The notes under the pieces: generated by a model
The model's database searches: none
What the model was told of the DNA's origin: nothing
What the model saw: the letters and a program-made list of their open reading frames with translations, nothing else
Made by a program: the position numbers and the translations under genes
Part shown: positions 3,700 through 26,553 of the stretch, piece by piece
How the letters are laid out: every line of letters begins with the position of its first letter
Position numbering within the stretch: position 1 is the stretch's first letter
From: an uncultured virus (IMG/VR IMGVR_UViG_3300020358_000003)
Taxonomy: Duplodnaviria; Heunggongvirae; Uroviricota; Caudoviricetes
Length of the DNA: 64,000 nt
Virus record (IMG/VR): IMGVR_UViG_3300020358_000003
Direction: 5' to 3' (one strand)

Positions 3700-4665
3700 A
3701 TGAGTAAAATTTTTATTACAGGTATAGCTGGATTTATCGGTTACCATCTTGCAAGAAAGCTATTCTCCCAAGGACATGACGTTTCGGGATTAGACAGCTT
3801 TAATGATTATTATGATCCATCACTAAAGAGGATCAGAGCATCTAAATTGTCTGATTTGGGAATAGAAGTATTTGAATGCAATCTAACCTCTGATGCGTTC
3901 AAATTTTATAAAAATGCACATAGGCTTACTATACCTCAACCGTCTTTAGACGGTGTTGAAACCGTCATACATCTTGCGGCATATGCTGGTGTTAGACACT
4001 CAATGTTAGACCCGCATCTTTATATCCAGAATAACATTATCGCATCACAAAACTTAATTGACAGGTGTGAGAAAGACGGCGTAAATAGAATTTTATATGC
4101 GTCAACATCGTGCGTCATGGCGGGTAATCCACTGCCTTGGAAAGAGGATGTGAACTTAGGTCACCAATTAAATCCTTACGGCTTTACAAAAGCGACTACA
4201 GAATCTCAGTTCAAAACCAGCAAAATTAAAAATACTACTGGACTTAGATTTTTTACTGTATATGGTCCTTGGGGTCGCCCCGACATGGCACTATTTGACT
4301 TTACTAAAAACATTATTGCGGGCAATCCTATAAAGCTATTCAACAATGGAGATATGACTAGAGATTTTACTTATATTGATGATATTGTAAACGGAATCTT
4401 ACTTCTTTTGACCGCTGATGGCAAAGAAATATATAACATTGGTCGCGGCGAAAAAGTTAAATTGCTAGATTTTGTTCATGAAATTGAAAATAACTTAAAT
4501 ATAAAAGCGATCAAAGAAATGGTGCCTATGCATCCAGCAGATACTCAAACTACATGGTCTGATACAACTAAAATAAAAAAACTAGGATATAATCCAAAAG
4601 TATCAATTGGTGAAGGAATAGAAAATTTCGTAAATTGGTACAAATTTTATTATAAAGTGAATTAA
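3700..4665 (+). CDS. NAD-dependent epimerase, UDP-glucuronate 4-epimerase-like
   Basis: GIAGFIG, HLAAYAGVRHS, YGFTK, RFFTVYGPWGRPDMA, RDFTYIDD. Confidence 0.9.
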   Translation: MSKIFITGIAGFIGYHLARKLFSQGHDVSGLDSFNDYYDPSLKRIRASKLSDLGIEVFECNLTSDAFKFYKNAHRLTIPQPSLDGVETVIHLAAYAGVRHSMLDPHLYIQNNIIASQNLIDRCEKDGVNRILYASTSCVMAGNPLPWKEDVNLGHQLNPYGFTKATTESQFKTSKIKNTTGLRFFTVYGPWGRPDMALFDFTKNIIAGNPIKLFNNGDMTRDFTYIDDIVNGILLLLTADGKEIYNIGRGEKVKLLDFVHEIENNLNIKAIKEMVPMHPADTQTTWSDTTKIKKLGYNPKVSIGEGIENFVNWYKFYYKVN

Positions 4666-4667
4666 AT

Positions 4668-5336
4668 ATGTCAAAAAATATAATACTCCAACATTGGGTT
4701 GGTAAATTAAGCGAATTAGAAAAATCATCTATTGAAGATATGAAGTCTTATGCCGAATATTGTGGGGCTGAACATAGATTAATAGAGGGATATTTTTTAG
4801 ATGGGCTGTGTCCACAAGGGCAAAAACTTCATATGTTAAATGAAGTTTTTGATGATTACGATATCGTAGTAATGTTAGACCCTGATATGTTTACAAACAA
4901 ACTTAAAAAAACAAAAAATATATTCACAGAAGAAACTGGTATTGGTAGGTATTTTGGATTACAACCAAAAATTCATAAAAAAGTAGTAATGAAACATCCT
5001 ATGTTGTCTAATATTAATAATGCATTTTGGGGTGGTGCAATATATAGATTAGAAAGAGAAATGAGAAAAAAATTGCGACAGCATATAGTTATTGGTGAAC
5101 TTTCTCAATTTAATAATGAGTTTTTTGATGAAGGAATGATGCACAGACTTGCTGTTAAAACGGATATTAAAAATGAATCCAAATATCATATTGATAGAGG
5201 TCAATGGGATTCTAGTAGTTATGAAAATAATAATAATTCTGAAATAATACATATTCGGCCTAGAAGATCATTAGGTGGCCCATGGACTCCAAAAATTCAA
5301 ATATATAGAGAATTGAAGGAAAGGGGATTAATATGA
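4668..5336 (+). CDS. putative glycosyltransferase
   Basis: MLDPD DxD motif, DEG motif and glyco-cluster context. Confidence 0.55.
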   Translation: MSKNIILQHWVGKLSELEKSSIEDMKSYAEYCGAEHRLIEGYFLDGLCPQGQKLHMLNEVFDDYDIVVMLDPDMFTNKLKKTKNIFTEETGIGRYFGLQPKIHKKVVMKHPMLSNINNAFWGGAIYRLEREMRKKLRQHIVIGELSQFNNEFFDEGMMHRLAVKTDIKNESKYHIDRGQWDSSSYENNNNSEIIHIRPRRSLGGPWTPKIQIYRELKERGLI

Positions 5337-6028
5337 AGGCATATTGTATAACCCTAAAAGATGATGAACTAAGTGAAAATGGTTTTAACAAAGTATGGCA
5401 AAGTGCTAAAGAACTAAATTGTGATTTCTATGTAGAGAGATTTGATGCTACAAATGAAAAAAATGCTAATAGACAGTTGCTTGATTGGGATTTATTTTGG
5501 AATTATCCATGGGAAGGTAAGGTTACCGATATTGCAACAGGTCTTACTAAATCTGCATATCCTACAGCGATCAAAGAAAGAAGAATTGCTTGTGCTATAA
5601 GTCATTTTAGATTATGGACGAAATGTTTTGAAATAAAAGAACCAATTCTTATATTGGAGCATGATGCCAAATTTGTTAAAAAATTAGATTATCAATATAT
5701 TTTAGATTCAAAATATAAAGTAGTGGGGATAAATAATCCTATTGGTGCAACAAGACGCGCTAGGCAATATCATGATATTATTCAGCGAAACCATAATCCA
5801 ATTCAAGGGATACCTCATATTGACGAATGGAATATTCCTCAAGGTTTGGCGGGAAATTCTGCATATATTATTAAACCAGAGGGGGCCGAAAAACTCATAT
5901 CAAATGTATTTAATTATGGGCTTTGGCCTAATGACGCTATTATGTGTAAACAATTAGTTGATGATATGGGGGTTACTAAAATTTTCTATACCGAAATTCA
6001 AGGTTTAAAATCAACAACAACTCAATAG
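5333..6028 (+). CDS. glycosyltransferase family 25-like
   Basis: CAISHFRLW, ILEHDA, SAYIIKPEGA. Confidence 0.8.
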   Translation: MKAYCITLKDDELSENGFNKVWQSAKELNCDFYVERFDATNEKNANRQLLDWDLFWNYPWEGKVTDIATGLTKSAYPTAIKERRIACAISHFRLWTKCFEIKEPILILEHDAKFVKKLDYQYILDSKYKVVGINNPIGATRRARQYHDIIQRNHNPIQGIPHIDEWNIPQGLAGNSAYIIKPEGAEKLISNVFNYGLWPNDAIMCKQLVDDMGVTKIFYTEIQGLKSTTTQ

Positions 6029-6038
6029 GTAAATTATA

Positions 6039-6701
6039 TTGAAAAAGATTGATATCTTTTATGCTGCTCTAAACGCAAAAAAATTTGAAAGATTAAATGA
6101 TTTCTATTATTACTGTATAGATTATGCTAATAATGGTCTTGCTTTAGATATAGGGTCTGATAATTTTTTAGGTCTAACAAAAAAGTTATTAGACAAACAG
6201 TGGGTTGGAGATATATGTGCATTTGATCTTCAAGATTTAAAAGAATATGATAATAAGATTGAGTTTTATAGTGGCGATGTTTTGGATACAATAACATCAG
6301 TTTTAGAAGATAAGAATAAAAAAATCTCTATTTTGGAGATAGATTTAAGAGAACCTACAATTTCTTTAAATGAGGATTTAGATTTGAAAAGAAATAGGGT
6401 GAATGAAGTATTGACTTTATGTGATGATTATTTGAATGATAATGTAGTGATTATAATAAATGAATTTATGAACGATGTGTGGGGCAGTATAAATCCAGAT
6501 GGGTATTTTCTAGCAGATTTTTTTGAAAAAAATAATAAGTCTTATGAATGTCTGGGATATCTACCGTATTATCTAAGTTATAATGGTGAATTATTAGGTA
6601 ACGAAGGTGCAACTGCTTGGGTTGTATCTGATAGTAAAAGTTTACAAGGAAACGATCTTAAAAATCTTATAAATCAATTATGGACACATAGTCCATTTTA
6701 A
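6039..6701 (+). CDS. hypothetical protein, possibly a degenerate methyltransferase fold
   Basis: 220-aa ORF with TTG start; LDIG and AFD resemble methyltransferase motifs. Confidence 0.5.
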   Translation: MKKIDIFYAALNAKKFERLNDFYYYCIDYANNGLALDIGSDNFLGLTKKLLDKQWVGDICAFDLQDLKEYDNKIEFYSGDVLDTITSVLEDKNKKISILEIDLREPTISLNEDLDLKRNRVNEVLTLCDDYLNDNVVIIINEFMNDVWGSINPDGYFLADFFEKNNKSYECLGYLPYYLSYNGELLGNEGATAWVVSDSKSLQGNDLKNLINQLWTHSPF

Positions 6702-6725
6702 ACAACCAAGAAAGGTTAAAAACAA

Positions 6726-7784
6726 ATGAAAAAACTTTTAGCAATCGTAGCAGCGGGAATGATGTTAGCAACAAGCGCATTCGCTGGGGATAAAGTAAAA
6801 GTAGGGTTTGTCTACGTTGGACCAACTGGTGATCATGGGTGGACATATCGTCATGATATTGGTCGCCAAGGAGTGCAAGACCATTTCGGTGACAAAGTTG
6901 AAACTGTATATGTAGAAAGTGTTAAAGAAGGTCCAGACGCTGCAAGAGTTATTCGTGGTATGGTAATGGACGGTGCTGATATTATTTTTACAACATCTTT
7001 TGGATATATGGAACAAACGCTAAAAATGGCGAAAATGTTTCCTAATGTAAAATTTGAACACGCAACTGGATATAAGCAAGCAAAGAATATGTCTAGTTAT
7101 GGGCTTAGATTATATCAAGCACGACACGTACAAGGTATTATTGCTGGACTTATGACAAAAACAAATAAGATTTGTTATGTTGCAGCATATCCAATTCCAG
7201 AAGTTATTCGTGAAATTAATACCTATTTTATGGGCGCACGTAGAATGAATCCAGACGTTGAAATGGATATTGTATGGGTAAATACTTGGTATGATCCCGG
7301 AAAAGAGTCGGATGCTGCTAAAGCCCTCATGTCCCAAGGTTGTGATATGATTGCACAACACACAGACTCTCCTGCGCCAATGCAAGCAGCAGAGGCACAA
7401 GGTAGACATGGCTTTGGTCAGGCATCAGATCAAATTGTGTTCGCGCCAGATGCACAATTGACTGCAACTATTGATAACTGGACTCCTTATTATATTCGTA
7501 AAGTTGGAGCAGTTATTGATGGAACTTGGGAGAGTGAGAACTATTTTGGTGGTATGAAAGAGGGTGGTGTGCAAATGGCCCCATTTACCAATATGCCAGA
7601 TGCAGTTCGCGCCAAAGCACAAGAGGTAAAAGACCAAATTGAAAATGGCGAATACTTTGCTTTCACTGGGCCATTATATGATAATGAAGGAAATCTTCAA
7701 CTCGCTGAAGGTGAGGTCGCAACTGATTTTCAGTTAAATTCAATGAATTATTATGTTGAAGGAATTAACGCGAAAGTACCTTAA
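6726..7784 (+). CDS. BMP-family ABC transporter substrate-binding protein (purine/nucleoside type)
   Basis: Signal peptide ending AFA; KVGFVYVGPTGDHGWTYRHD, FTTSFGY, FEHATGYK, TWYDPGKE, QHTDS. Confidence 0.92.
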   Translation: MKKLLAIVAAGMMLATSAFAGDKVKVGFVYVGPTGDHGWTYRHDIGRQGVQDHFGDKVETVYVESVKEGPDAARVIRGMVMDGADIIFTTSFGYMEQTLKMAKMFPNVKFEHATGYKQAKNMSSYGLRLYQARHVQGIIAGLMTKTNKICYVAAYPIPEVIREINTYFMGARRMNPDVEMDIVWVNTWYDPGKESDAAKALMSQGCDMIAQHTDSPAPMQAAEAQGRHGFGQASDQIVFAPDAQLTATIDNWTPYYIRKVGAVIDGTWESENYFGGMKEGGVQMAPFTNMPDAVRAKAQEVKDQIENGEYFAFTGPLYDNEGNLQLAEGEVATDFQLNSMNYYVEGINAKVP

Positions 7785-7795
7785 ATAATTATTAA

Positions 7796-7823
7796 TGGAG
7801 ACTCCAATGGAGTCTCCAACTTT
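7796..7823 (+). terminator. stem-loop after the BMP gene
   Basis: TGGAGACTCC-AAT-GGAGTCTCCA perfect 10-bp inverted repeat with a short T tail. Confidence 0.55.
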
Positions 7824-7837
7824 AGGATTGATTTAAT

Positions 7838-8419
7838 ATGAATAATACAACAAATGGCGGTTCACAACCAGCAATGATTCCACCAAAAATGCAATTAATT
7901 TCAAATGGAATGTATGTGTTTATGGGTGATGTGTCTATGGATACGATGAGTCCAATTATTGATTGGATATTATCAGAAAATATGAAAAGAAGTGATAGAC
8001 AAAAAGAATTGACTTTAGGTATTTGCTCAAGAGGTGGTGATCTTAATGCTTGCTTTGCATTAGTTGATGTTTTGAGAGCATCAACAATTCCTGTTAAGAC
8101 TGTAGGATTAGGTATGATTGCATCTTGTGGTTTGCTTTTATTTATATCTGGACAAAAAGGTAAAAGAATTTTAACACCAAATACTGCAATTTTATCTCAT
8201 CAATATTCTTGGGGTAGTGTAGGTAAAGAACATGAATTGTTTGCCAGAGTGAAAGAGATGGAACTCACAACCGAGCGTATGATTAATCATTACAAAAAAT
8301 GCACTGGGATGAATGAAAAAAAAGTAAGAGAGTTTCTTCTTCCACCAGAAGATGTTTGGTTAAGCGCAGAGGAAGCAAAAAGTTTAAAACTTTGTGATAA
8401 AATAGAAGATATACAATAA
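7838..8419 (+). CDS. clpP: ClpP-like ATP-dependent protease proteolytic subunit
   Basis: ICSRGG, GMIASCG (catalytic Ser), ILSHQ (His), DVWLSAEEA. Confidence 0.85.
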   Translation: MNNTTNGGSQPAMIPPKMQLISNGMYVFMGDVSMDTMSPIIDWILSENMKRSDRQKELTLGICSRGGDLNACFALVDVLRASTIPVKTVGLGMIASCGLLLFISGQKGKRILTPNTAILSHQYSWGSVGKEHELFARVKEMELTTERMINHYKKCTGMNEKKVREFLLPPEDVWLSAEEAKSLKLCDKIEDIQ

Positions 8420-8447
8420 AAATATTACTAAATACATCTAATGAGTT

Positions 8448-8474
8448 GAGGAAGCCTTGGCTTCCTCTTTTTTT
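8448..8474 (+). terminator. intrinsic terminator
   Basis: GAGGAAGC-CTTG-GCTTCCTC followed by a T7 run. Confidence 0.75.
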
Positions 8475-8490
8475 AAAAGAAAGAGAGAAA

Positions 8491-9318
8491 ATGACACAAC
8501 TGATAAATCCAAAGAAATTTACTAACACTGTGGGGCTTTTACGCTCCTTTTTTTTGACCAGAGGGTTTCAAGAAGTACATACGCAAAATAGATTAAGCAT
8601 TTTAGCAGCATGTGAAGACCCAGAAAATGTAGCAAGTTATAATTATGAAGGTGAGGTTTGGCCTTTACCGCAAACAGGTCAAATGTGGCTAGAACATGAA
8701 TTATTATCTGATCCCTCTGCGAAGGGATTTTTTTGTGTCTCCACTTCATATAGACAAGAACCAAACGCAATTCCAGGTAGACACGATACGATTTTTCCTA
8801 TGTTTGAATTTGAAATGGCAGGTGATATTAATGATCTTAAAGTTATGGAAAGACAATTAGTAAGTCACTTAGGTTTTGACGATTGCACAGAGAAAACGTA
8901 TGGAGAATGGCAGCAACATTATGGTGTTAGTGCAAATACCGAATTGGATGCCCAACATGAGTTGGCAATGCAAGCATCATTCGGTTCTTGTATGATTACA
9001 GATTTTCCAGAGATAACAAGTCCGTTTTGGAATATGTCTAGAAACGAGGATGGTACAAGTAGAAAAATTGATGTTATCCTTGGTGGTATGGAAACTATTG
9101 GTAGTGCAGAACGCAGTACCGACAAAGAACAAATGAGAAACACATTTAATACAATTTCTAATGGTGAATATGCTGGACTCATCAAGAGTTTATTTGGAGA
9201 TGAAAGGGTTGAGGCAGAACTTGAAAAGTTTCTTGAGTTTGATTTCTTCCCAAGAGTTGGTGGTGGTATAGGGTTGACACGAATGATATCCGCTCTAGAA
9301 ACTCAAAAGAGTAACTAA
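8491..9318 (+). CDS. class IIb aminoacyl-tRNA synthetase catalytic-domain-only protein (AsnRS2/AsnA-like)
   Basis: Motif 2 SYRQE...RHDTIFPMFEFE and motif 3 GGGIGLTRM, ETIGSAER. About 275 aa with no N-terminal OB anticodon-binding domain. Confidence 0.85.
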   Translation: MTQLINPKKFTNTVGLLRSFFLTRGFQEVHTQNRLSILAACEDPENVASYNYEGEVWPLPQTGQMWLEHELLSDPSAKGFFCVSTSYRQEPNAIPGRHDTIFPMFEFEMAGDINDLKVMERQLVSHLGFDDCTEKTYGEWQQHYGVSANTELDAQHELAMQASFGSCMITDFPEITSPFWNMSRNEDGTSRKIDVILGGMETIGSAERSTDKEQMRNTFNTISNGEYAGLIKSLFGDERVEAELEKFLEFDFFPRVGGGIGLTRMISALETQKSN

Positions 9319-9327
9319 AGCGCATAT

Positions 9328-9438
9328 TCTGGGGTGGTGGAATAGGTAGACACGCGATACTGTTTATATCGTGGATATATAGTTAAGTGTAAAAGACTAT
9401 TTATATTCGTGAAGGTTCGAGTCCTTCCCCCAGAGCCA
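9328..9438 (+). tRNA. atypical tRNA-Asn(GTT) with a 39-nt variable region
   Basis: Acceptor TCTGGGG/CCCCAGA, G73, CCA. Anticodon arm CGATA-CTGTTTA-TATCG. T arm GAAGG-TTCGAGT-CCTTC. Length 111 nt. Confidence 0.8.
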
Positions 9439-9452
9439 AAGGAAATAAAAAA

Positions 9453-10316
9453 ATGATACCAGTGATTGATTTAAATTCTTCATATGCAAATCAGCATATT
9501 GAGGATGCCTACACATCTGTGGGTTTTGCAGTTTTTACTAATAGTTTAACTCAAATTGAAAAGTCTGACATAATTAGTTGGTTTAGCGAAATGAAAGCAT
9601 TTTTCAATTTACCTGATGAAATAAAGAAAAAATATCCATATGAAGGCGATACCAATCTAGGATATAGCATGGTGGGTGATGAAAATGTTGATCCAACAGC
9701 ACCTAAAGACATTAAAGAATCTTTCAATTACAATAATACAAGAATGAGCGAATATCTTTGGCCCAAAGAACTTCCAGGATTTAAAGCAACAGCATTACAA
9801 AGTATTGATGTTGCAGACAAACTTACGATTAGAATACTTAGTAGGTTTGATGAAATTCTAAAATGTGGCACTACTCTTGTGGACGCTCATATGAAACCAT
9901 TTAACACTACAAGAGTTATTCATTACCCAGCCCATGATGGTCCAGTAGAAGATAAGCAAATGAGAATAGGTGAACATAGTGACTATGGTACTATCACATT
10001 ACTGTGGCAAATTAATGATGTTCCAGGATTGCAAGTTCAAGACTTAAAAGGAGAGTGGCATCCAGTGCCATATGATGTTGACGGTGTGGTTGTGAATATT
10101 GGCGATCTACTCCAGAGATGGACAAACGATTACTTTAAAAGCACTAAGCATAGAGTAGTTAATTCGCATATACATAAGACTAGATACAGTATGCCACATT
10201 TTGTTGATCCTACTCCAGGAACAATGGTGAAAAATTTGAGAACCCATGAGGTTGACAAGTACTTACCTATTGAGAGTAAAGAATATTTGATGTGGAGACT
10301 AGCACAAAGTTATTGA
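9453..10316 (+). CDS. isopenicillin N synthase-family 2OG-Fe(II) dioxygenase
   Basis: IPVIDL, HSDYGTITLL (HxD), STKHRV, RYS. Confidence 0.9.
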   Translation: MIPVIDLNSSYANQHIEDAYTSVGFAVFTNSLTQIEKSDIISWFSEMKAFFNLPDEIKKKYPYEGDTNLGYSMVGDENVDPTAPKDIKESFNYNNTRMSEYLWPKELPGFKATALQSIDVADKLTIRILSRFDEILKCGTTLVDAHMKPFNTTRVIHYPAHDGPVEDKQMRIGEHSDYGTITLLWQINDVPGLQVQDLKGEWHPVPYDVDGVVVNIGDLLQRWTNDYFKSTKHRVVNSHIHKTRYSMPHFVDPTPGTMVKNLRTHEVDKYLPIESKEYLMWRLAQSY

Positions 10317-10324
10317 GGTATATT

Positions 10325-11101
10325 ATGCATTCTTTAGTACTATTAGGATATGGGTTTGTTGGTAAGGCAGTACATGACGTACTGAAAGATCATCACAATA
10401 TTATTATTGTAGACCCACAATATTCAAACGACACAGTAGAAGATCAAGTTGGAAAGGATGGTTACATAGTTTGCTTGCCCACCCCTCAAGGACAGTATGG
10501 TGAGTGTGATGTAAGTATTATTTTTGAAATGTTAAATAAAATTCCTGCTGTAGATGGTCAAGTTACAGAGGTTCTTATAAAATCTACTATATCAATAGAA
10601 GGTTGGAGAGAAATTGAAAAAGATAATACGCATTTAAATATATGTTTTTCTCCAGAGTTTTTAACTGCTGCAAAAGCATCTGAAGATTTTAAAAATCAAG
10701 ATAAAATGCTTTTCGGTGGTGGGAATGAAGATTTCTGGATTAATGTTTTTGAACCTTGCAAAAAGTTTGATGCAGTCCGATCATCAATTCCTGAACTCAT
10801 CATAACTAAATATGTTAGAAATTCTTTCCTAGCAACAAAAGTCGCGTTTTTTAATGAAGTTTATGATCTTTGTGCTTCTTTGAATATCCAATACGATGAA
10901 GTATCATATCTCGTAGGTATGGATGAAAGGATTGGATATTCACATATAAGTGTTCCAGGTCCAGATGGTGATAGAGGTTTTGGCGGTGCTTGTTTTCCAA
11001 AAGACACACTTGCTTTGCAGCATTCAGCGGAAAGTAGGGATCAGCATCTTAATATTTTAAATGCTGCAATTGCATCAAATAGAAATAAGAGAAAACTATG
11101 A
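10325..11101 (+). CDS. ugd: UDP-glucose/GDP-mannose dehydrogenase
   Basis: GYGFVG, IKST, SPEFL, GFGGACFPKD; GAGG RBS before ATG 10325. Lacks the C-terminal domain. Confidence 0.85.
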   Translation: MHSLVLLGYGFVGKAVHDVLKDHHNIIIVDPQYSNDTVEDQVGKDGYIVCLPTPQGQYGECDVSIIFEMLNKIPAVDGQVTEVLIKSTISIEGWREIEKDNTHLNICFSPEFLTAAKASEDFKNQDKMLFGGGNEDFWINVFEPCKKFDAVRSSIPELIITKYVRNSFLATKVAFFNEVYDLCASLNIQYDEVSYLVGMDERIGYSHISVPGPDGDRGFGGACFPKDTLALQHSAESRDQHLNILNAAIASNRNKRKL

Positions 11102-11781
11102 AATCATATGTAATAACAATTATGGATATGGAAAAATCTGTCAAGGCAGCGGAAAAGTGTATTCAATCTGCTGCTGAATATGGTGTGACGGTAGAGATGT
11201 TTCCTGCGATAACGCCAAAAGATGATCCTTCAAGAATGATGGACGAGCGCAATATACCAACTTTTAGATTTAATGAAAAATGGTCTAGAACCGAAAGATG
11301 TATGGCAGCATTTTTATCTCATCATAGTCTTTGGAAAAAATGTGAAGAAGAAAAAGATCAATCTTATTTAATTTTGGAGCATGATGCAGTTTTTGAAGGA
11401 AATATCCCAAATATAAGTATGCTTGAGATCAACACAGAGCCACTATTAGTATCTTTGGGGGAACCATCTTATGGTTCATATGAAACTCCAAATACTATTG
11501 GTTTAAATAAATTACAATCAAAATCTTACCTTCCAGGCGCACATGCTTACATGATTAACTATAAGGCAGCACACCAACTTGTCGTTAGAGCAAAAAATGA
11601 CCCTTGCCCAACTGATGTTTTTATTGATAATAGAAGATTTTATTTTTTACATGAATGGAGTCCATTTCCTATTACTGTAAAGGATACTTTCACAACTATA
11701 CAAAGAGAAATCGGATGTGCAAGTAAACACTCTTATAAAAAGACGATTGAAACAGGAAAGGGTAAATATGATATTATTTGA
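11098..11781 (+). CDS. glycosyltransferase family 25-like
   Basis: FLSHHSLW, ILEHDA, GAHAYMI. Confidence 0.8.
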   Translation: MKSYVITIMDMEKSVKAAEKCIQSAAEYGVTVEMFPAITPKDDPSRMMDERNIPTFRFNEKWSRTERCMAAFLSHHSLWKKCEEEKDQSYLILEHDAVFEGNIPNISMLEINTEPLLVSLGEPSYGSYETPNTIGLNKLQSKSYLPGAHAYMINYKAAHQLVVRAKNDPCPTDVFIDNRRFYFLHEWSPFPITVKDTFTTIQREIGCASKHSYKKTIETGKGKYDII

Positions 11782-12487
11782 TAAATGTTTCATCACTGGT
11801 TGTGATGAAAATACTGAATGGATGCTTCCTTGGTTTGTTGAAAATTATAAAACCCATAATGATATTCCTTTAGTTTTTGCAGACTTTGGTGTTAGTTTAG
11901 AATTAAAAAATATGTTATCACACTTAGGTTTTGATCATGTTATAGACATGCGAAACACAATTGCAGATTCTACGATTGGTAATCCAAAAAAATTAGTTAA
12001 TTGGTTTAAAAAACCAAAAGCGATGATAAATTGTTCTAAAATTTCAAATTATAGTTGCTGGATAGATAGTGACATAGAAGTTTTAGCAGATATATCAGAT
12101 ATTTTTAGTTATGTTGTTCCTAACAAATTAGGAATGGTTCAAGACCACCCATGGTCAACAAGAATGAAGCAAACTTGGCATAATTCTGGAATTGTTGCAT
12201 TCAAAGATTGTCCAGAAATTTTAAAGAAATGGTCGCAATATATTGAAAAAGGTGGTCATGGTCAGAGAGGCGATCAGGAAGTACTCCATGCATTGTTAAC
12301 AGCCCCACTTAATAGAATGATACATATTACTGATATTCCAAATGAATATAATTGGTTAAGATTACAATTTGAGAATGATAATCAAAAAAGTGACAATGCA
12401 AAGGCGATTCATTGGACAGGTAGAAAAGGAAAAGCGCGAATTATGAGTAAAATGGGAATGGAAATTATGGAAGATTCTAATGCCTAG
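11768..12487 (+). CDS. glycosyltransferase, GT-A fold (GT8-like)
   Basis: WIDSD, NSGIV, GDQEVL, YNW, IHWTG. Confidence 0.75.
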   Translation: MILFDKCFITGCDENTEWMLPWFVENYKTHNDIPLVFADFGVSLELKNMLSHLGFDHVIDMRNTIADSTIGNPKKLVNWFKKPKAMINCSKISNYSCWIDSDIEVLADISDIFSYVVPNKLGMVQDHPWSTRMKQTWHNSGIVAFKDCPEILKKWSQYIEKGGHGQRGDQEVLHALLTAPLNRMIHITDIPNEYNWLRLQFENDNQKSDNAKAIHWTGRKGKARIMSKMGMEIMEDSNA

Positions 12488-13082
12488 TGTAGCACATATT
12501 ATTGGTAACGGAAAAAGTGCTGGCTTATATAATCCATCAAAGGGTTTAAAGATCGTATGTAATCTTCCACCTATGGAAGTTAACAATGTATATACAACAG
12601 TGATGGTTGATTTTAAAATGATGAAAGCCATATCAACAGGAAGTGTTCAAGTTCTTGGGGATTGGGTATTAGGTGCTAGACCAAAGCATTGGATGGAAAT
12701 GAGAAATGATTTCTATATCCATTATTCAAAACAAATTAAAGAGTTTTATACAGTTCTACCTAAATATGCTTCAAACTATACAGATTTTAATTGTGGGCAT
12801 ATGGCAACACATTACACTGCAAATAAATTAAAAAGAGAAGAGATTCATATGTATGGGTTTGATTCAATGTTTGGTTTTGATATTACAAGTCACTCAGATG
12901 TATATTTACCCTCTCCAAGAGATAATTTAAACACTCAAAGATTGACAGAAAATTGGAGACCTATTTGGCATGGACTATTTAGAGAGTTTCCAAAAACTCA
13001 ATTCGTTATTCATCAAGTGAAGGGTAAATCTTTAGTAAAATTACCTGATAATGTTGAAGTGGTTTATCCAAAGCGCAAATAG
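12480..13082 (+). CDS. putative glycosyltransferase/DUF115-like Rossmann protein
   Basis: IIGNGKS...CN...IHMYGFD pattern. Confidence 0.55.
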   Translation: MPSVAHIIGNGKSAGLYNPSKGLKIVCNLPPMEVNNVYTTVMVDFKMMKAISTGSVQVLGDWVLGARPKHWMEMRNDFYIHYSKQIKEFYTVLPKYASNYTDFNCGHMATHYTANKLKREEIHMYGFDSMFGFDITSHSDVYLPSPRDNLNTQRLTENWRPIWHGLFREFPKTQFVIHQVKGKSLVKLPDNVEVVYPKRK

Positions 13083-13113
13083 TATACTACCCTCATCATA
13101 AAGGAGTCTCCTT

Positions 13114-15708: not shown

Positions 15709-15784
15709 GGTCTCTTGGCTCAATGGATAGAGCAACGGCCTTCTAAGCCGTAGGTTGCAAGTTCGAGTCTTGCAGAGACCGCCA
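15709..15784 (+). tRNA. tRNA-Arg(TCT)
   Basis: Cloverleaf; ACGGC-CTTCTAA-GCCGT anticodon arm, GTTCGAG T loop, CCA. Confidence 0.95.
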
Positions 15785-15789
15785 AGAAA

Positions 15790-15985
15790 CTGAGTGAAAA
15801 GTTAAATTGGAACACGAAGTGTTGGAGTTTAAAAAATCATTCAGTGAAATCCTAGTTGTTTTGAAGCCTTGCAAGGTCATTCTAGGTCGGTGAATACTCT
15901 GTACCGACGAAAACCAGAGCGGAATTGTCAACGAGAAAGACAAATAGGGGGTGGAGATTGTGCATAGTCTCCACCCTTGACCCTA
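15790..15985 (+). ncRNA. putative structured non-coding RNA
   Basis: Five consecutive stems and a possible pseudoknot between tRNA-Arg and the next RBS. Confidence 0.45.
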
Positions 15986-16002
15986 ATATAAGGAATAACG
16001 AG

Positions 16003-16191
16003 TTGTATAAATTAGAACGAAATGGTAAAATTGTAGAACGTATCGTAATGTCTGGTGATCTGGGATATAAAGTTTATCAGATTCCAGAAATAATTGATTT
16101 AGTGTTTGATACAAAAGAACAAGCCAAACAAGTGGCAAATATATTGGACGCTAAAGTTGTAGTCCATCAAGAATATGCAAGAGTAGCATAA
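16003..16191 (+). CDS. hypothetical protein
   Basis: AAGGA RBS before TTG 16003. Confidence 0.5.
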   Translation: MYKLERNGKIVERIVMSGDLGYKVYQIPEIIDLVFDTKEQAKQVANILDAKVVVHQEYARVA

Positions 16192-16213
16192 GGAATAAAA
16201 TAAGGAGATTGCA

Positions 16214-16438
16214 ATGCTTACATGCTTAATAGTTGCAGGATCATTATGGATAGGTGATGACACTAGGATGTTTCCAACACAAGGAGCGTTTTATTTTATT
16301 AAACAAAGAGATGTGATTGTAATTTATGATAATTCAAAACGAACAAGAATCGCTAGTTTTGTAATACCAAAGAATGTTAAAGGCGATACTATAAAAGAAG
16401 TATTTGAAAATTGTAATAACGCTCCCATGGTGGAATAG
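16214..16438 (+). CDS. hypothetical protein
   Basis: AAGGAG RBS; 3' end overlaps tRNA-Leu. Confidence 0.6.
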   Translation: MLTCLIVAGSLWIGDDTRMFPTQGAFYFIKQRDVIVIYDNSKRTRIASFVIPKNVKGDTIKEVFENCNNAPMVE

Positions 16439-16507
16439 GTAGACACACCAGACTTAAAATCTGTTGCCCATAGTGGCGTCCCAGTTCAAGTCTGGGTGGG
16501 AGTACCA
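16421..16507 (+). tRNA. tRNA-Leu(TAA)
   Basis: Type II cloverleaf; CCAGA-CTTAAAA-TCTGT anticodon arm, A73, CCA. Confidence 0.95.
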
Positions 16508-16513
16508 AATAAC

Positions 16514-16589
16514 GCGAGAGTAGCATAGTGGTTAATGCGCACCGCTCATAACGGTTTGATCGTAGGTTCAAATCCTACCTCTCGCACCA
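16514..16589 (+). tRNA. tRNA(CAT), Ile2 or elongator Met
   Basis: GCGAGAG/CTCTCGC acceptor, ACCG-CTCATAA-CGGT anticodon arm, CCA. No initiator GGG/CCC stem. Confidence 0.9.
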
Positions 16590-25260: not shown

Positions 25261-25550
25261 ACTTGGCGAGACACGCGAACAAAATTATTAAGATTAACCC
25301 TAATATGATGATACCGTATTATCTTATGGCATCATATGCTTATTATGAAGAATCTGATCCAATTTTTTCTGATAGTTACTTTGATAATTTGGCTAAAAAT
25401 ATTTTAAAAGAATGGGATAACTTAGATCATTACCATAAACATCTACTAGATAGAGATGTTCTTGAAGCAGGAAGTTATATTGGAAAATATCCAACAATCG
25501 TAATTGACTCTTTAGATGAATTGAAAAAAGGAAAAAATAATGCTAATTAA
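25257..25550 (+). CDS. stand-alone protein resembling NAD+-dependent DNA ligase subdomain Ia
   Basis: [17 protein letters not shown] matches the YY...P.ISD..YD motif. Confidence 0.6.
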
Positions 25551-26553
25551 TGATGATGTTAAACTTGATTATTCTGACGTTTTGATCAGACCAAAACGAT
25601 CAACACTAACTTCGCGGTATGATGTTGACTTAGAGAGAAAATACAAATTTAAACATAGTAAAAAAACTTGGATGGGAACTCCAATTATGGCATCAAACAT
25701 GGATACTGTGGGAACATTTTCCATGGCAGATGTGTTGACTAATTATAATATGATAACTTGCCTCGCCAAACATTATAATGCAGAAGGTGTATGGCCCACT
25801 AAAATTCTAGAGCCAAATCATTTATGCGTTATGGGTGGAATATCTGATACTGACATTCAAAACACTCAAAAAATATACCAATCAAGTGAAGCATTTTTCA
25901 TTGGTTTAGATGTAGCCAATGGCTACACAATTAGTTTTGTAGATGCTGTAAAGAAAATGCGTGATTTAGAACCAGACGCTACAATTATTGCGGGTAATGT
26001 TGTCACTGCTGATATGACGCAAGAACTAATCCTTGCTGGTGCAGACATTGTAAAAGTTGGTGTTGGTCCTGGTTCAGTTTGTACAACAAGAATTAAAACT
26101 GGTATTGGTATGCCTCAACTGAGTGCGGTTATTGAATGTGCTGATGCAGCGCATGGTATGGATGCTCATATCATTGCGGATGGTGGATGTACTACTTCTG
26201 GTGATATGGTGAAAGCATTTGCCGCAGGTGCAGATTTTGTAATGATTGGTGGTATGCTTGCTGGGCATGATGAATGTGATGGTATTATAGACAATGGTAA
26301 AATGAAATTTTATGGTATGGCGTCAGGCTCTGCGATGGATAGACACAAAGTTGGTCATAGAGAATATAGAGGCGTTGAAGGTAAAACCGTCACAGTAGAT
26401 CATAAAGGGCCAGTGGAGTTAACACTAATTGATATTTTATCTGGCATCAGATCAGCGTGTACTTATGTTGGTGCAAGCAGATTAAAAGATTTATCAAAAT
26501 GCGCGACATTTGTAAGAGTAAATAATACGCATAATACAGTTTATGGCTCTTGA
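25540..26553 (+). CDS. guaC: GMP reductase
   Basis: [53 protein letters not shown]. Confidence 0.93.

Follow-up and report, generated by a model that had tools for sequence, protein, structure and literature searches.

Several stand-alone proteins are known that retain little more than the catalytic core of a class II aminoacyl-tRNA synthetase. AS-AR ('AsnRS2'; PDB 3P8T/3REU) and bacterial AsnA are such cores of about 290 amino acids from an Asx synthetase, and EpmA/GenX (PoxA), the EF-P-modifying paralogue of lysyl-tRNA synthetase (LysRS), is a domain-less class IIb core that passes its activated amino acid to a non-tRNA acceptor. Carrier tRNAs also act outside decoding, in GatCAB transamidation, as Glu-tRNA in haem synthesis and as tRNA-Gly in the staphylococcal cell wall. 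In these systems the tRNA is a handle for the amino acid; to our knowledge, no such system is linked to pyrimidine genes or contains a captive chimeric tRNA together with a domain-less synthetase paralogue. Here we describe a gene pair in a 64,000-nucleotide stretch of DNA (the window) from an uncultured T4-like cyanomyovirus (IMG/VR IMGVR_UViG_3300020358_000003): a gene for a small protein resembling asparaginyl-tRNA synthetase (AsnRS), called X here, followed by a tRNA with the anticodon GUU, called tRNA(GUU) (Table 1). By their sequences and joint distribution, the two probably form an enzyme-plus-tRNA module and not an enzyme beside an ordinary decoding tRNA. Our tentative reading, which may well hold, places X in pyrimidine-precursor metabolism, as an adenylating enzyme of Asn type whose partner is a carrier tRNA that host enzymes load.

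The pair itself is already known; GenBank has carried it under the names 'tRNA ligase' and 'tRNA-Asn' from the earliest cyanomyovirus genomes onward. The nearest isolates with X among the phage records were the Prochlorococcus phages P-SSM7 (69% protein identity), P-SSM2 (64%) and P-SSM5. These carry the same pair in the same order ('tRNA ligase', T4-GC 194, then tRNA-Asn; 64-69% identical), with the tRNA 7-9 nt past the stop codon and a variable region of 17 nt, compared with 39 nt and an encoded CCA in the window; their deposited names rest on similarity only. In the main text of Sullivan et al. (2010) the gene occupies one table row without discussion, and there is no mention of orotate, pyrE or pyrimidine. 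No functional study of the X-tRNA pair was found in the literature (CC-licensed PubMed Central papers and bioRxiv). In the P-SSM2 record (AY939844.2), the deposited tRNA-Asn (PSSM2_199) has been put some 2 kb downstream of its true place, within PSSM2_205; ARAGORN placed the tRNA at positions 3813-3900 of the extracted locus (L002), directly 3' of the 'tRNA ligase' gene.

A protein-based scan showed that at least 597 stretches in IMG/VR encode relatives of X, and the best 80 were examined. The tRNA lay beside X on the same strand in 75 of these 80 loci. In 72 parsed copies, including those of the window and the three isolates, the tRNA began 4-11 nt past the stop codon of X; the exceptions in spacing were one copy 133 nt downstream of X and one cut by the end of its contig. 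The linkage also held when the search began from the tRNA. A tRNA-only pattern (Leu-type D arm, GUU and T loop) matched at least 120 IMG/VR stretches, of which 80 were examined, and X was found just upstream on the same strand in all 75 loci that could be tested (five more had too little upstream DNA), including one, L284, in which X was only 54% identical to that of the window. The flanking genes varied among the 80 loci found with the protein (ClpP-like in 2, Bmp-like in 15, 2OG oxygenase in 14), and the X + tRNA pair moves as a unit. An earlier note on this DNA, made from the letters alone, had proposed looking for an adjacent long-arm GTT tRNA in phage homologues; within the cyanophage clade the answer was positive in both directions. 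At L284, a small Cys/His-containing open reading frame (ORF) stands between X and the tRNA, and an ORF that by eye is ammonium-transporter-like lies 3' of the tRNA.

The window tRNA scored 43.8 bits against Rfam RF00005 (gathering score 29), with a 36-nt insertion in the variable region, and its anticodon loop CUGUUUA gives the anticodon GUU. It begins 9 nt past the stop codon of the enzyme gene and about 6.3 kb from the remaining three tRNA genes of the window (Arg, Leu and Met, at 15709-16589; ARAGORN), both as the earlier note had described. ARAGORN did not detect the window tRNA at 9328-9438, and on the long-arm copies of relatives (L006-L085) it returned the wrong calls Asp(atc), Gly(acc), Ile(aat), Glu(ctc) and Stop(tta), indicating that automatic annotation under-counts or mislabels tRNA(GUU). 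Copies were identified by Rfam, a purpose-made parser and a covariance model in place of ARAGORN; blastn with a 101-nt tRNA query against the phage collection gave no match. Across 53 distinct homologous tRNAs, 99.9% of the cloverleaf cells were paired and 15 of the 20 pairs showed compensatory changes; none of 500 shuffled controls reached the covariation score of the cloverleaf, and slid controls also came nowhere near it. U1-A72 and G73 were present in all 53 distinct sequences, while the other acceptor pairs covaried. The anticodon was GTT in all 74 complete IMG/VR copies. At position 37, 56 of these copies had T, 4 had C and 14 had A; a pyrimidine here, as in 60 of the 74, is unusual in a tRNA meant for decoding (purine-37 rule). 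Among the 68 loci measurable by the parser, the variable region had 13-17 nt in 18 and 28-39 nt in the other 50, a spread of 13-39 nt, so the fixed long variable arm that the earlier note had suggested for recognition is not the common feature. Where it is long, the arm forms a helix whose pairs covary; its 3' strand, UAUUU, is conserved and its loop contains GCAA (28-31-nt class). A tRNA intron was considered and rejected, the insertion being a covarying helix at the variable-arm position.

When the covariance model was run on host genomes, tRNA-Leu matched best (57-59 bits), followed by tRNA-Ser (46-50 bits), and the best type I match was tRNA-Asn at about 41 bits. tRNA(GUU) and the tRNA-Leu(TAA) of the window have identical D arms. 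The acceptor end, anticodon and T arm of tRNA(GUU) resemble host tRNA-Asn, which has the same GUU, G73 and U1-A72 marks, a set that we take to be the bacterial identity set of tRNA-Asn. tRNA(GUU) does not fit a type I tRNA-Asn body with a short variable loop and A37, since its variable region is 13-39 nt and U or C stands at position 37 in 60 of 74 copies. It fits the type II body of tRNA-Leu (Leu-type D arm, long variable arm) without the Leu anticodon or A73, the latter presumably a mark of tRNA-Leu; GUU and G73 stand in all sequences. By sequence, tRNA(GUU) is thus best described as a chimera of a Leu-type body and Asn-type identity marks. Charging by leucyl- or seryl-tRNA synthetase is presumably unlikely, as G73 speaks against the former and the acceptor and D-arm pairs are unlike those of tRNA-Ser.

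X matched PF00152, the class II core of the D, K and N synthetases, at E 1.7e-15 over profile positions 27-296 of 308, and no other domain was found in the Pfam scan. As the protein has only 275 residues and the match begins at residue 12, there is no oligonucleotide-binding (OB) fold domain, and the earlier description of an AsnRS-like catalytic core without the anticodon-binding part proved correct. The AF2 model of X (pLDDT 96.6) likewise aligned to the catalytic part of AsnRS only, for example residues 119-415 of 1x54. A profile built from 57 diverse family members found AsnRS as the best match in the PDB (3.6e-15), ahead of archaeal-type aspartyl-tRNA synthetase (AspRS; about 1e-12) and archaeal asparagine synthetase A, that is, AS-AR (3p8t; 1e-6); EpmA (4e-5) and LysRS (about 1e-4) were weaker. 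Structural comparison of the model also placed AsnRS first. The Foldseek match to 1x54 was 5.3e-18, human AsnRS superposed with Z 27.6 and a root-mean-square deviation of 2.1 over 248 residues, and the structural Z scores were 26.7-27.6 for the class IIb catalytic domain of AsnRS (1X54, 8H53, 2XTI, 9SH8), 26.1 for AspRS, 23.4-24.0 for AS-AR and 23.9 for EpmA, suggesting that X has the AsnRS fold.

The active site of X also appears to be of the AsnRS type. In alignments to Brugia and human AsnRS, the X segment QTGQMWLE lines up with QSSQLYLE, SYR.E..GRH...E.E with SYRAE..RH...E.E, and ETIGSAER with E.VGGSMR. Motifs 2 and 3 and the contacts QS.Q..LE and E..G.S.R are common to both, and so are the residues read as lining the amino-acid and ATP sites, including the first of the two Glu, where AspRS has Asp; the functional meaning of these positions we take from our general knowledge of the synthetases. 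X differs from AsnRS in the absence of the N-terminal OB anticodon domain, in an identity of only about 20-23%, in a Gln in place of the motif-1 Pro (by reading of the alignment) and in the family-specific invariant motifs ACEDP and SPFWNM. It also differs from AS-AR and AsnA, which have neither a dedicated tRNA nor pyrimidine-gene fusions, and from EpmA, which has a Lys-type pocket. X fell below every curated family cut-off tried: those of asnS (TIGR00457, 24.1 bits against 342.6; NF003037, 23.8 against 414), asparagine synthetase A (NF005055, 16.9 against 389) and EpmA (TIGR00462, 16.8 against 286.9; NF006828, 14.6 against 264), showing that it belongs to a family of its own. In PHROGs this is phrog_29758, 'unknown function' (E 6e-129). 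The family comprises 663 representative clusters at E <=0.001 (50%-identity library), mostly stand-alone proteins of 270-300 aa, and only viral clusters of it were returned by the protein atlas. Members with and without the tRNA, giant-virus members and fused members had 61 invariant residues in common, which points to a single chemistry throughout the family.

Host genomes were reached via psbA loci and comprised three Prochlorococcus and two Synechococcus genomes; psbA was not found in record G001. None of the five had an asnS gene over the cut-off, the weak matches being LysRS- and AspRS-sized frames, while gatB was present in all five and an asnB-type asparagine synthetase gene in three. 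From established knowledge, Asn-tRNA in hosts without asnS and with gatB must therefore come via AspRS and GatCAB. Direct asparaginylation that bypasses GatCAB, as the earlier note had proposed, is consequently a meaningful idea for these hosts, but the pyrimidine at position 37 weakens it. Metatranscriptome contigs from two studies covered parts of X, with identical pieces at 8677-8825, 9041-9337 and 9090-9260, and one contig of a 93%-identical relative ran from X through the tRNA into the beginning of the following gene. These assembled RNA-library contigs give a weak hint of expression of the pair, and a weak one only, because contigs cannot show transcript ends, processing or the level of expression, uncovered stretches carry no meaning and DNA may contaminate the libraries.

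Beyond the cyanophages, relatives of X that were 42-56% identical to it and had the same invariant active-site residues were found with no such tRNA nearby, which speaks against a pair made for charging this tRNA. They occurred in two huge phages (42-47% identity; no tRNA within 3 kb), in eight other phage loci (no tRNA within 1.5 kb) and in giant-virus contigs, one of which had an ordinary tRNA array 3.6 kb off. The neighbours in the huge phages and the eight phage loci, including DNA polymerase, a RimK-like ATP-grasp protein, GIY-YIG endonucleases, an ankyrin protein and GNAT, gave no functional clue. A scan of IMG/VR with P0175 found no relative. In a 735-kb huge phage (LR756501.1, 80000-96000; L193), X is followed by the RimK-like ATP-grasp protein, a 210-aa ORF and a 669-aa protein with a weak phosphoribosyltransferase motif.

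The X family is tied to pyrimidine genes by fusion, by clustering and by co-occurrence. Nine of the 13 homologues longer than 482 aa combined X with DHO_dh, the dihydroorotate dehydrogenase (DHODH) domain (one was verified by hmmscan), and another homologue was a fusion of X with OMPdecase (hmmscan). In the giant-virus-like contig L181, pyrD, a pyrE-pyrF fusion and X followed one another on one strand, and a full DHODH-X fusion lay beside giant-virus-like genes in L180. X adjoined purC in L188, and ThyX or a deoxynucleoside kinase was encoded near X in three loci. One giant-virus bin had an ATCase/OTCase-type gene (OTCace_N) about 10 kb from X, apparently on the same contig as judged from contig numbering, and no Amidohydro_1 (dihydroorotase-type) gene. 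Among 50,697 phage records, the isolates with X and the isolates with a PyrE of this kind were the same three, P-SSM2, P-SSM5 and P-SSM7; PyrE of P-SSM7 and P-SSM2 scored 131 and 130 bits against the NCBIfam pyrE cut-off of 106.8. The sole complete IMG/VR genome with the pair also had pyrE (125 bits), so that the gene was present in all four complete phage genomes with the X-tRNA pair. In the contigs of L033, L034 and L074, a phosphoribosyltransferase-like ORF of 176-201 aa lies about 2.5 kb upstream of X and scored 24-29 bits for pyrE, under the cut-off.

Taken with the two-way linkage, these ties suggest that X and tRNA(GUU) act as one functional unit, in which X would come from a virus-wide family of AsnRS-derived, adenylate-forming enzymes that lost the anticodon-binding domain and that take part in, or supply, the part of de novo pyrimidine synthesis before orotate. 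In cyanophage hosts, which have no AsnRS and would make Asn only on tRNA, X would have become coupled to a dedicated tRNA. tRNA(GUU) would keep the marks needed by the host's non-discriminating AspRS and GatCAB (GUU, G73 and U1-A72) in a body poorly built for decoding. Host enzymes would load Asp on it and amidate this to Asn, and X would take or handle the Asx at the 3' end of the tRNA in its AsnRS-like pocket. Plain decoding leaves three things unexplained, namely the chimera, the pyrimidine at position 37 and a tRNA never seen without X. The carrier reading covers most of the facts; the tRNA would be an amino-acid handle, as in the known carrier systems. A more specific and quite improbable form of this proposal is that X makes dihydroorotate directly from Asn, CO2 and ATP, with Asn-tRNA, built by host AspRS and GatCAB on the phage's non-decoding tRNA(GUU), as the substrate. 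Asn already supplies five of the six ring atoms (N1, C6, C5, C4 and N3), and such a route would bypass carbamoyl-phosphate synthetase, aspartate carbamoyltransferase and dihydroorotase with one enzyme, in a setting of picocyanobacteria without AsnRS and often without asparagine synthetase. This reaction would be chemically economical and is entirely inferred.

Several observations weigh against a carrier tRNA in pyrimidine metabolism. An AsnRS-like pocket activates the alpha-carboxyl, which is the wrong bond for closing the pyrimidine ring, so the ring-closing chemistry is left unexplained. Binding of the tRNA by X and catalysis on it are predictions, and the roles given to GUU, G73 and U1-A72, like the purine-37 rule, are assumed from general knowledge. 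The median net charge is -19 in the tRNA-linked clade of X and -10 in the distant members; this greater acidity gives no sign of an acquired RNA-binding surface. Five of the 80 close loci (L010, L016, L032, L035 and L071; X 76-85% identical) had no tRNA beside X, and the covariance model found no copy elsewhere in their contigs, which were 2-21% complete. Of 18 X contigs, only one had pyrE over the cut-off; the remaining 17 were fragments of 12-55% completeness. DHODH was found in none of 10 X-bearing phage and giant-virus records tested (0 of 5 in each of two sets), and OMPdecase and Amidohydro_1 were each absent from six of six X-bearing records, indicating that X is usually the sole pyrimidine-like gene besides pyrE.

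The alternative that survives best is the orthogonal pair proposed in the earlier note, a private mini-AsnRS and its tRNA serving translation. X would charge tRNA(GUU) with free Asn by recognizing the acceptor end and the shape of the tRNA in place of the anticodon, and would yield Asn-tRNA in an AsnRS-less host, bypassing AspRS and GatCAB. We consider it a live rival, although an unlikely one. On the enzyme side, the nearest known fold is AsnRS, the ATP and amino-acid motifs are intact and the discriminating residues are AsnRS-type; yet X falls well short of the asnS cut-off, lacks an RNA-binding domain and is strongly acidic, with a net charge of -18. On the tRNA side, the X gene is fixed, with two-way linkage, beside a tRNA with GUU, G73 and an encoded CCA, but that tRNA mostly has a pyrimidine at position 37 and an inconstant variable arm, and relatives that share the invariant residues lack such a tRNA and show links to pyrD, pyrE and pyrF. 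The absence of AsnRS from all five hosts would give such a pair a use, and the contigs over X, and over X and tRNA in one relative, hint weakly at expression; free Asn may nevertheless be scarce, since two of the five hosts had no asnB-type gene. The linkage and the AsnRS-like core of the earlier proposal stand, while the tRNA-less relatives, the charge of X and the pyrimidine at position 37 speak against the charging function given to them.

Somewhat more doubtful still is that X is a tRNA-independent metabolic enzyme and that the tRNA is an ordinary decoding tRNA-Asn travelling in the same cassette. X may then be an asparagine synthetase like AS-AR or AsnA, or drive the conversion of carbamoyl-aspartate to dihydroorotate with ATP. 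Most clades of the family, in the two huge phages, the eight phage loci and the giant-virus loci, have no adjacent tRNA, as is also true of 5 of the 80 close loci; however, all 75 testable tRNA loci have X despite their varying flanks, and the tRNA is a chimera found only with X and mostly bears a pyrimidine at position 37. A metabolic role is suggested by the fusions to, and clusters with, pyrimidine genes, and the domain-less relatives AS-AR (Z 24.0) and EpmA (Z 23.9) are not known to charge tRNA. Against the first option, X scored only 16.9 bits where asparagine synthetase A requires 389, and Asn from a plain asparagine synthetase could not serve translation, because the host has no AsnRS to use free Asn. 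A third idea, that X replaces the glutamine-dependent GatCAB as a tRNA-dependent amidase by converting Asp-tRNA(GUU), made by host AspRS, to Asn-tRNA with ATP and ammonia, is very improbable: the AspRS identity marks are kept, the large Leu-type D loop could presumably hinder GatCAB and one divergent pair has the ammonium-transporter-like ORF 3' of the tRNA, but the conserved contacts would fit the AsnRS mode with ATP facing the alpha- and not the beta-carboxyl, the GatCAB mark U1-A72 need not then be invariant, and the pyrimidine ties are left unexplained.

The layout of the locus is given in Table 1. The hairpin separates the X gene from an upstream ClpP-like gene and forms the 5' edge of the module. 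The ClpP-like protease gene (7838-8419, + strand; PF00574, E 1.1e-26) stands directly 5' of X, an adjacency seen in only 2 of the 80 related loci. The module sits inside a run of sugar and envelope genes on the + strand (window 3700-13100), whose members include an NAD-dependent epimerase, two family-25 glycosyltransferases, a UDP-glucose dehydrogenase-like protein, a Bmp/PnrA-like substrate-binding protein and a 2OG-Fe(II) oxygenase. A further nucleotide-metabolism gene of the source phage, of the IMPDH/GMP-reductase family, lies at 25540-26553 (+ strand; PF00478, E 2e-67).

Table 1. Features of the X-tRNA(GUU) locus, in window coordinates.
Feature	Position	Strand	Details
Terminator-like hairpin followed by a T run	8448..8467	+	8 pairs, 5 of them G-C; T tail
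X gene; 275-aa class IIb synthetase-like core of AsnRS type, without anticodon-binding domain	8491..9318	+	start ATG 8491, stop TAA 9316-9318
Spacer from the X stop to the first tRNA base, 9 nt	9319..9327	+	
tRNA(GUU), chimeric, 111 nt, CCA encoded	9328..9438	+	U1-A72, G73; Leu-type D stem (3 bp), D loop of 11 nt; T arm like host tRNA-Asn
Anticodon GTT	9362..9364	+	position 37 = T (window 9365)
Variable region, 39 nt, long A+U-rich helix	9372..9410	+	minimum-free-energy fold: 12 pairs, 2-nt bulge

The pair is abundant: public data, mostly marine, yielded no fewer than 8000 protein clusters (90% identity), and IMG/VR at least 597 loci. Pyrimidine synthesis limits phage DNA production in nutrient-poor oceans. 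If tRNA(GUU) is the carrier for a metabolic enzyme, the pair would represent a new viral use of tRNA and a new entry into pyrimidine synthesis. If X is instead a true mini-AsnRS, it would be a natural anticodon-blind synthetase with its own tRNA, relevant to the evolution of the synthetases and to orthogonal pairs.

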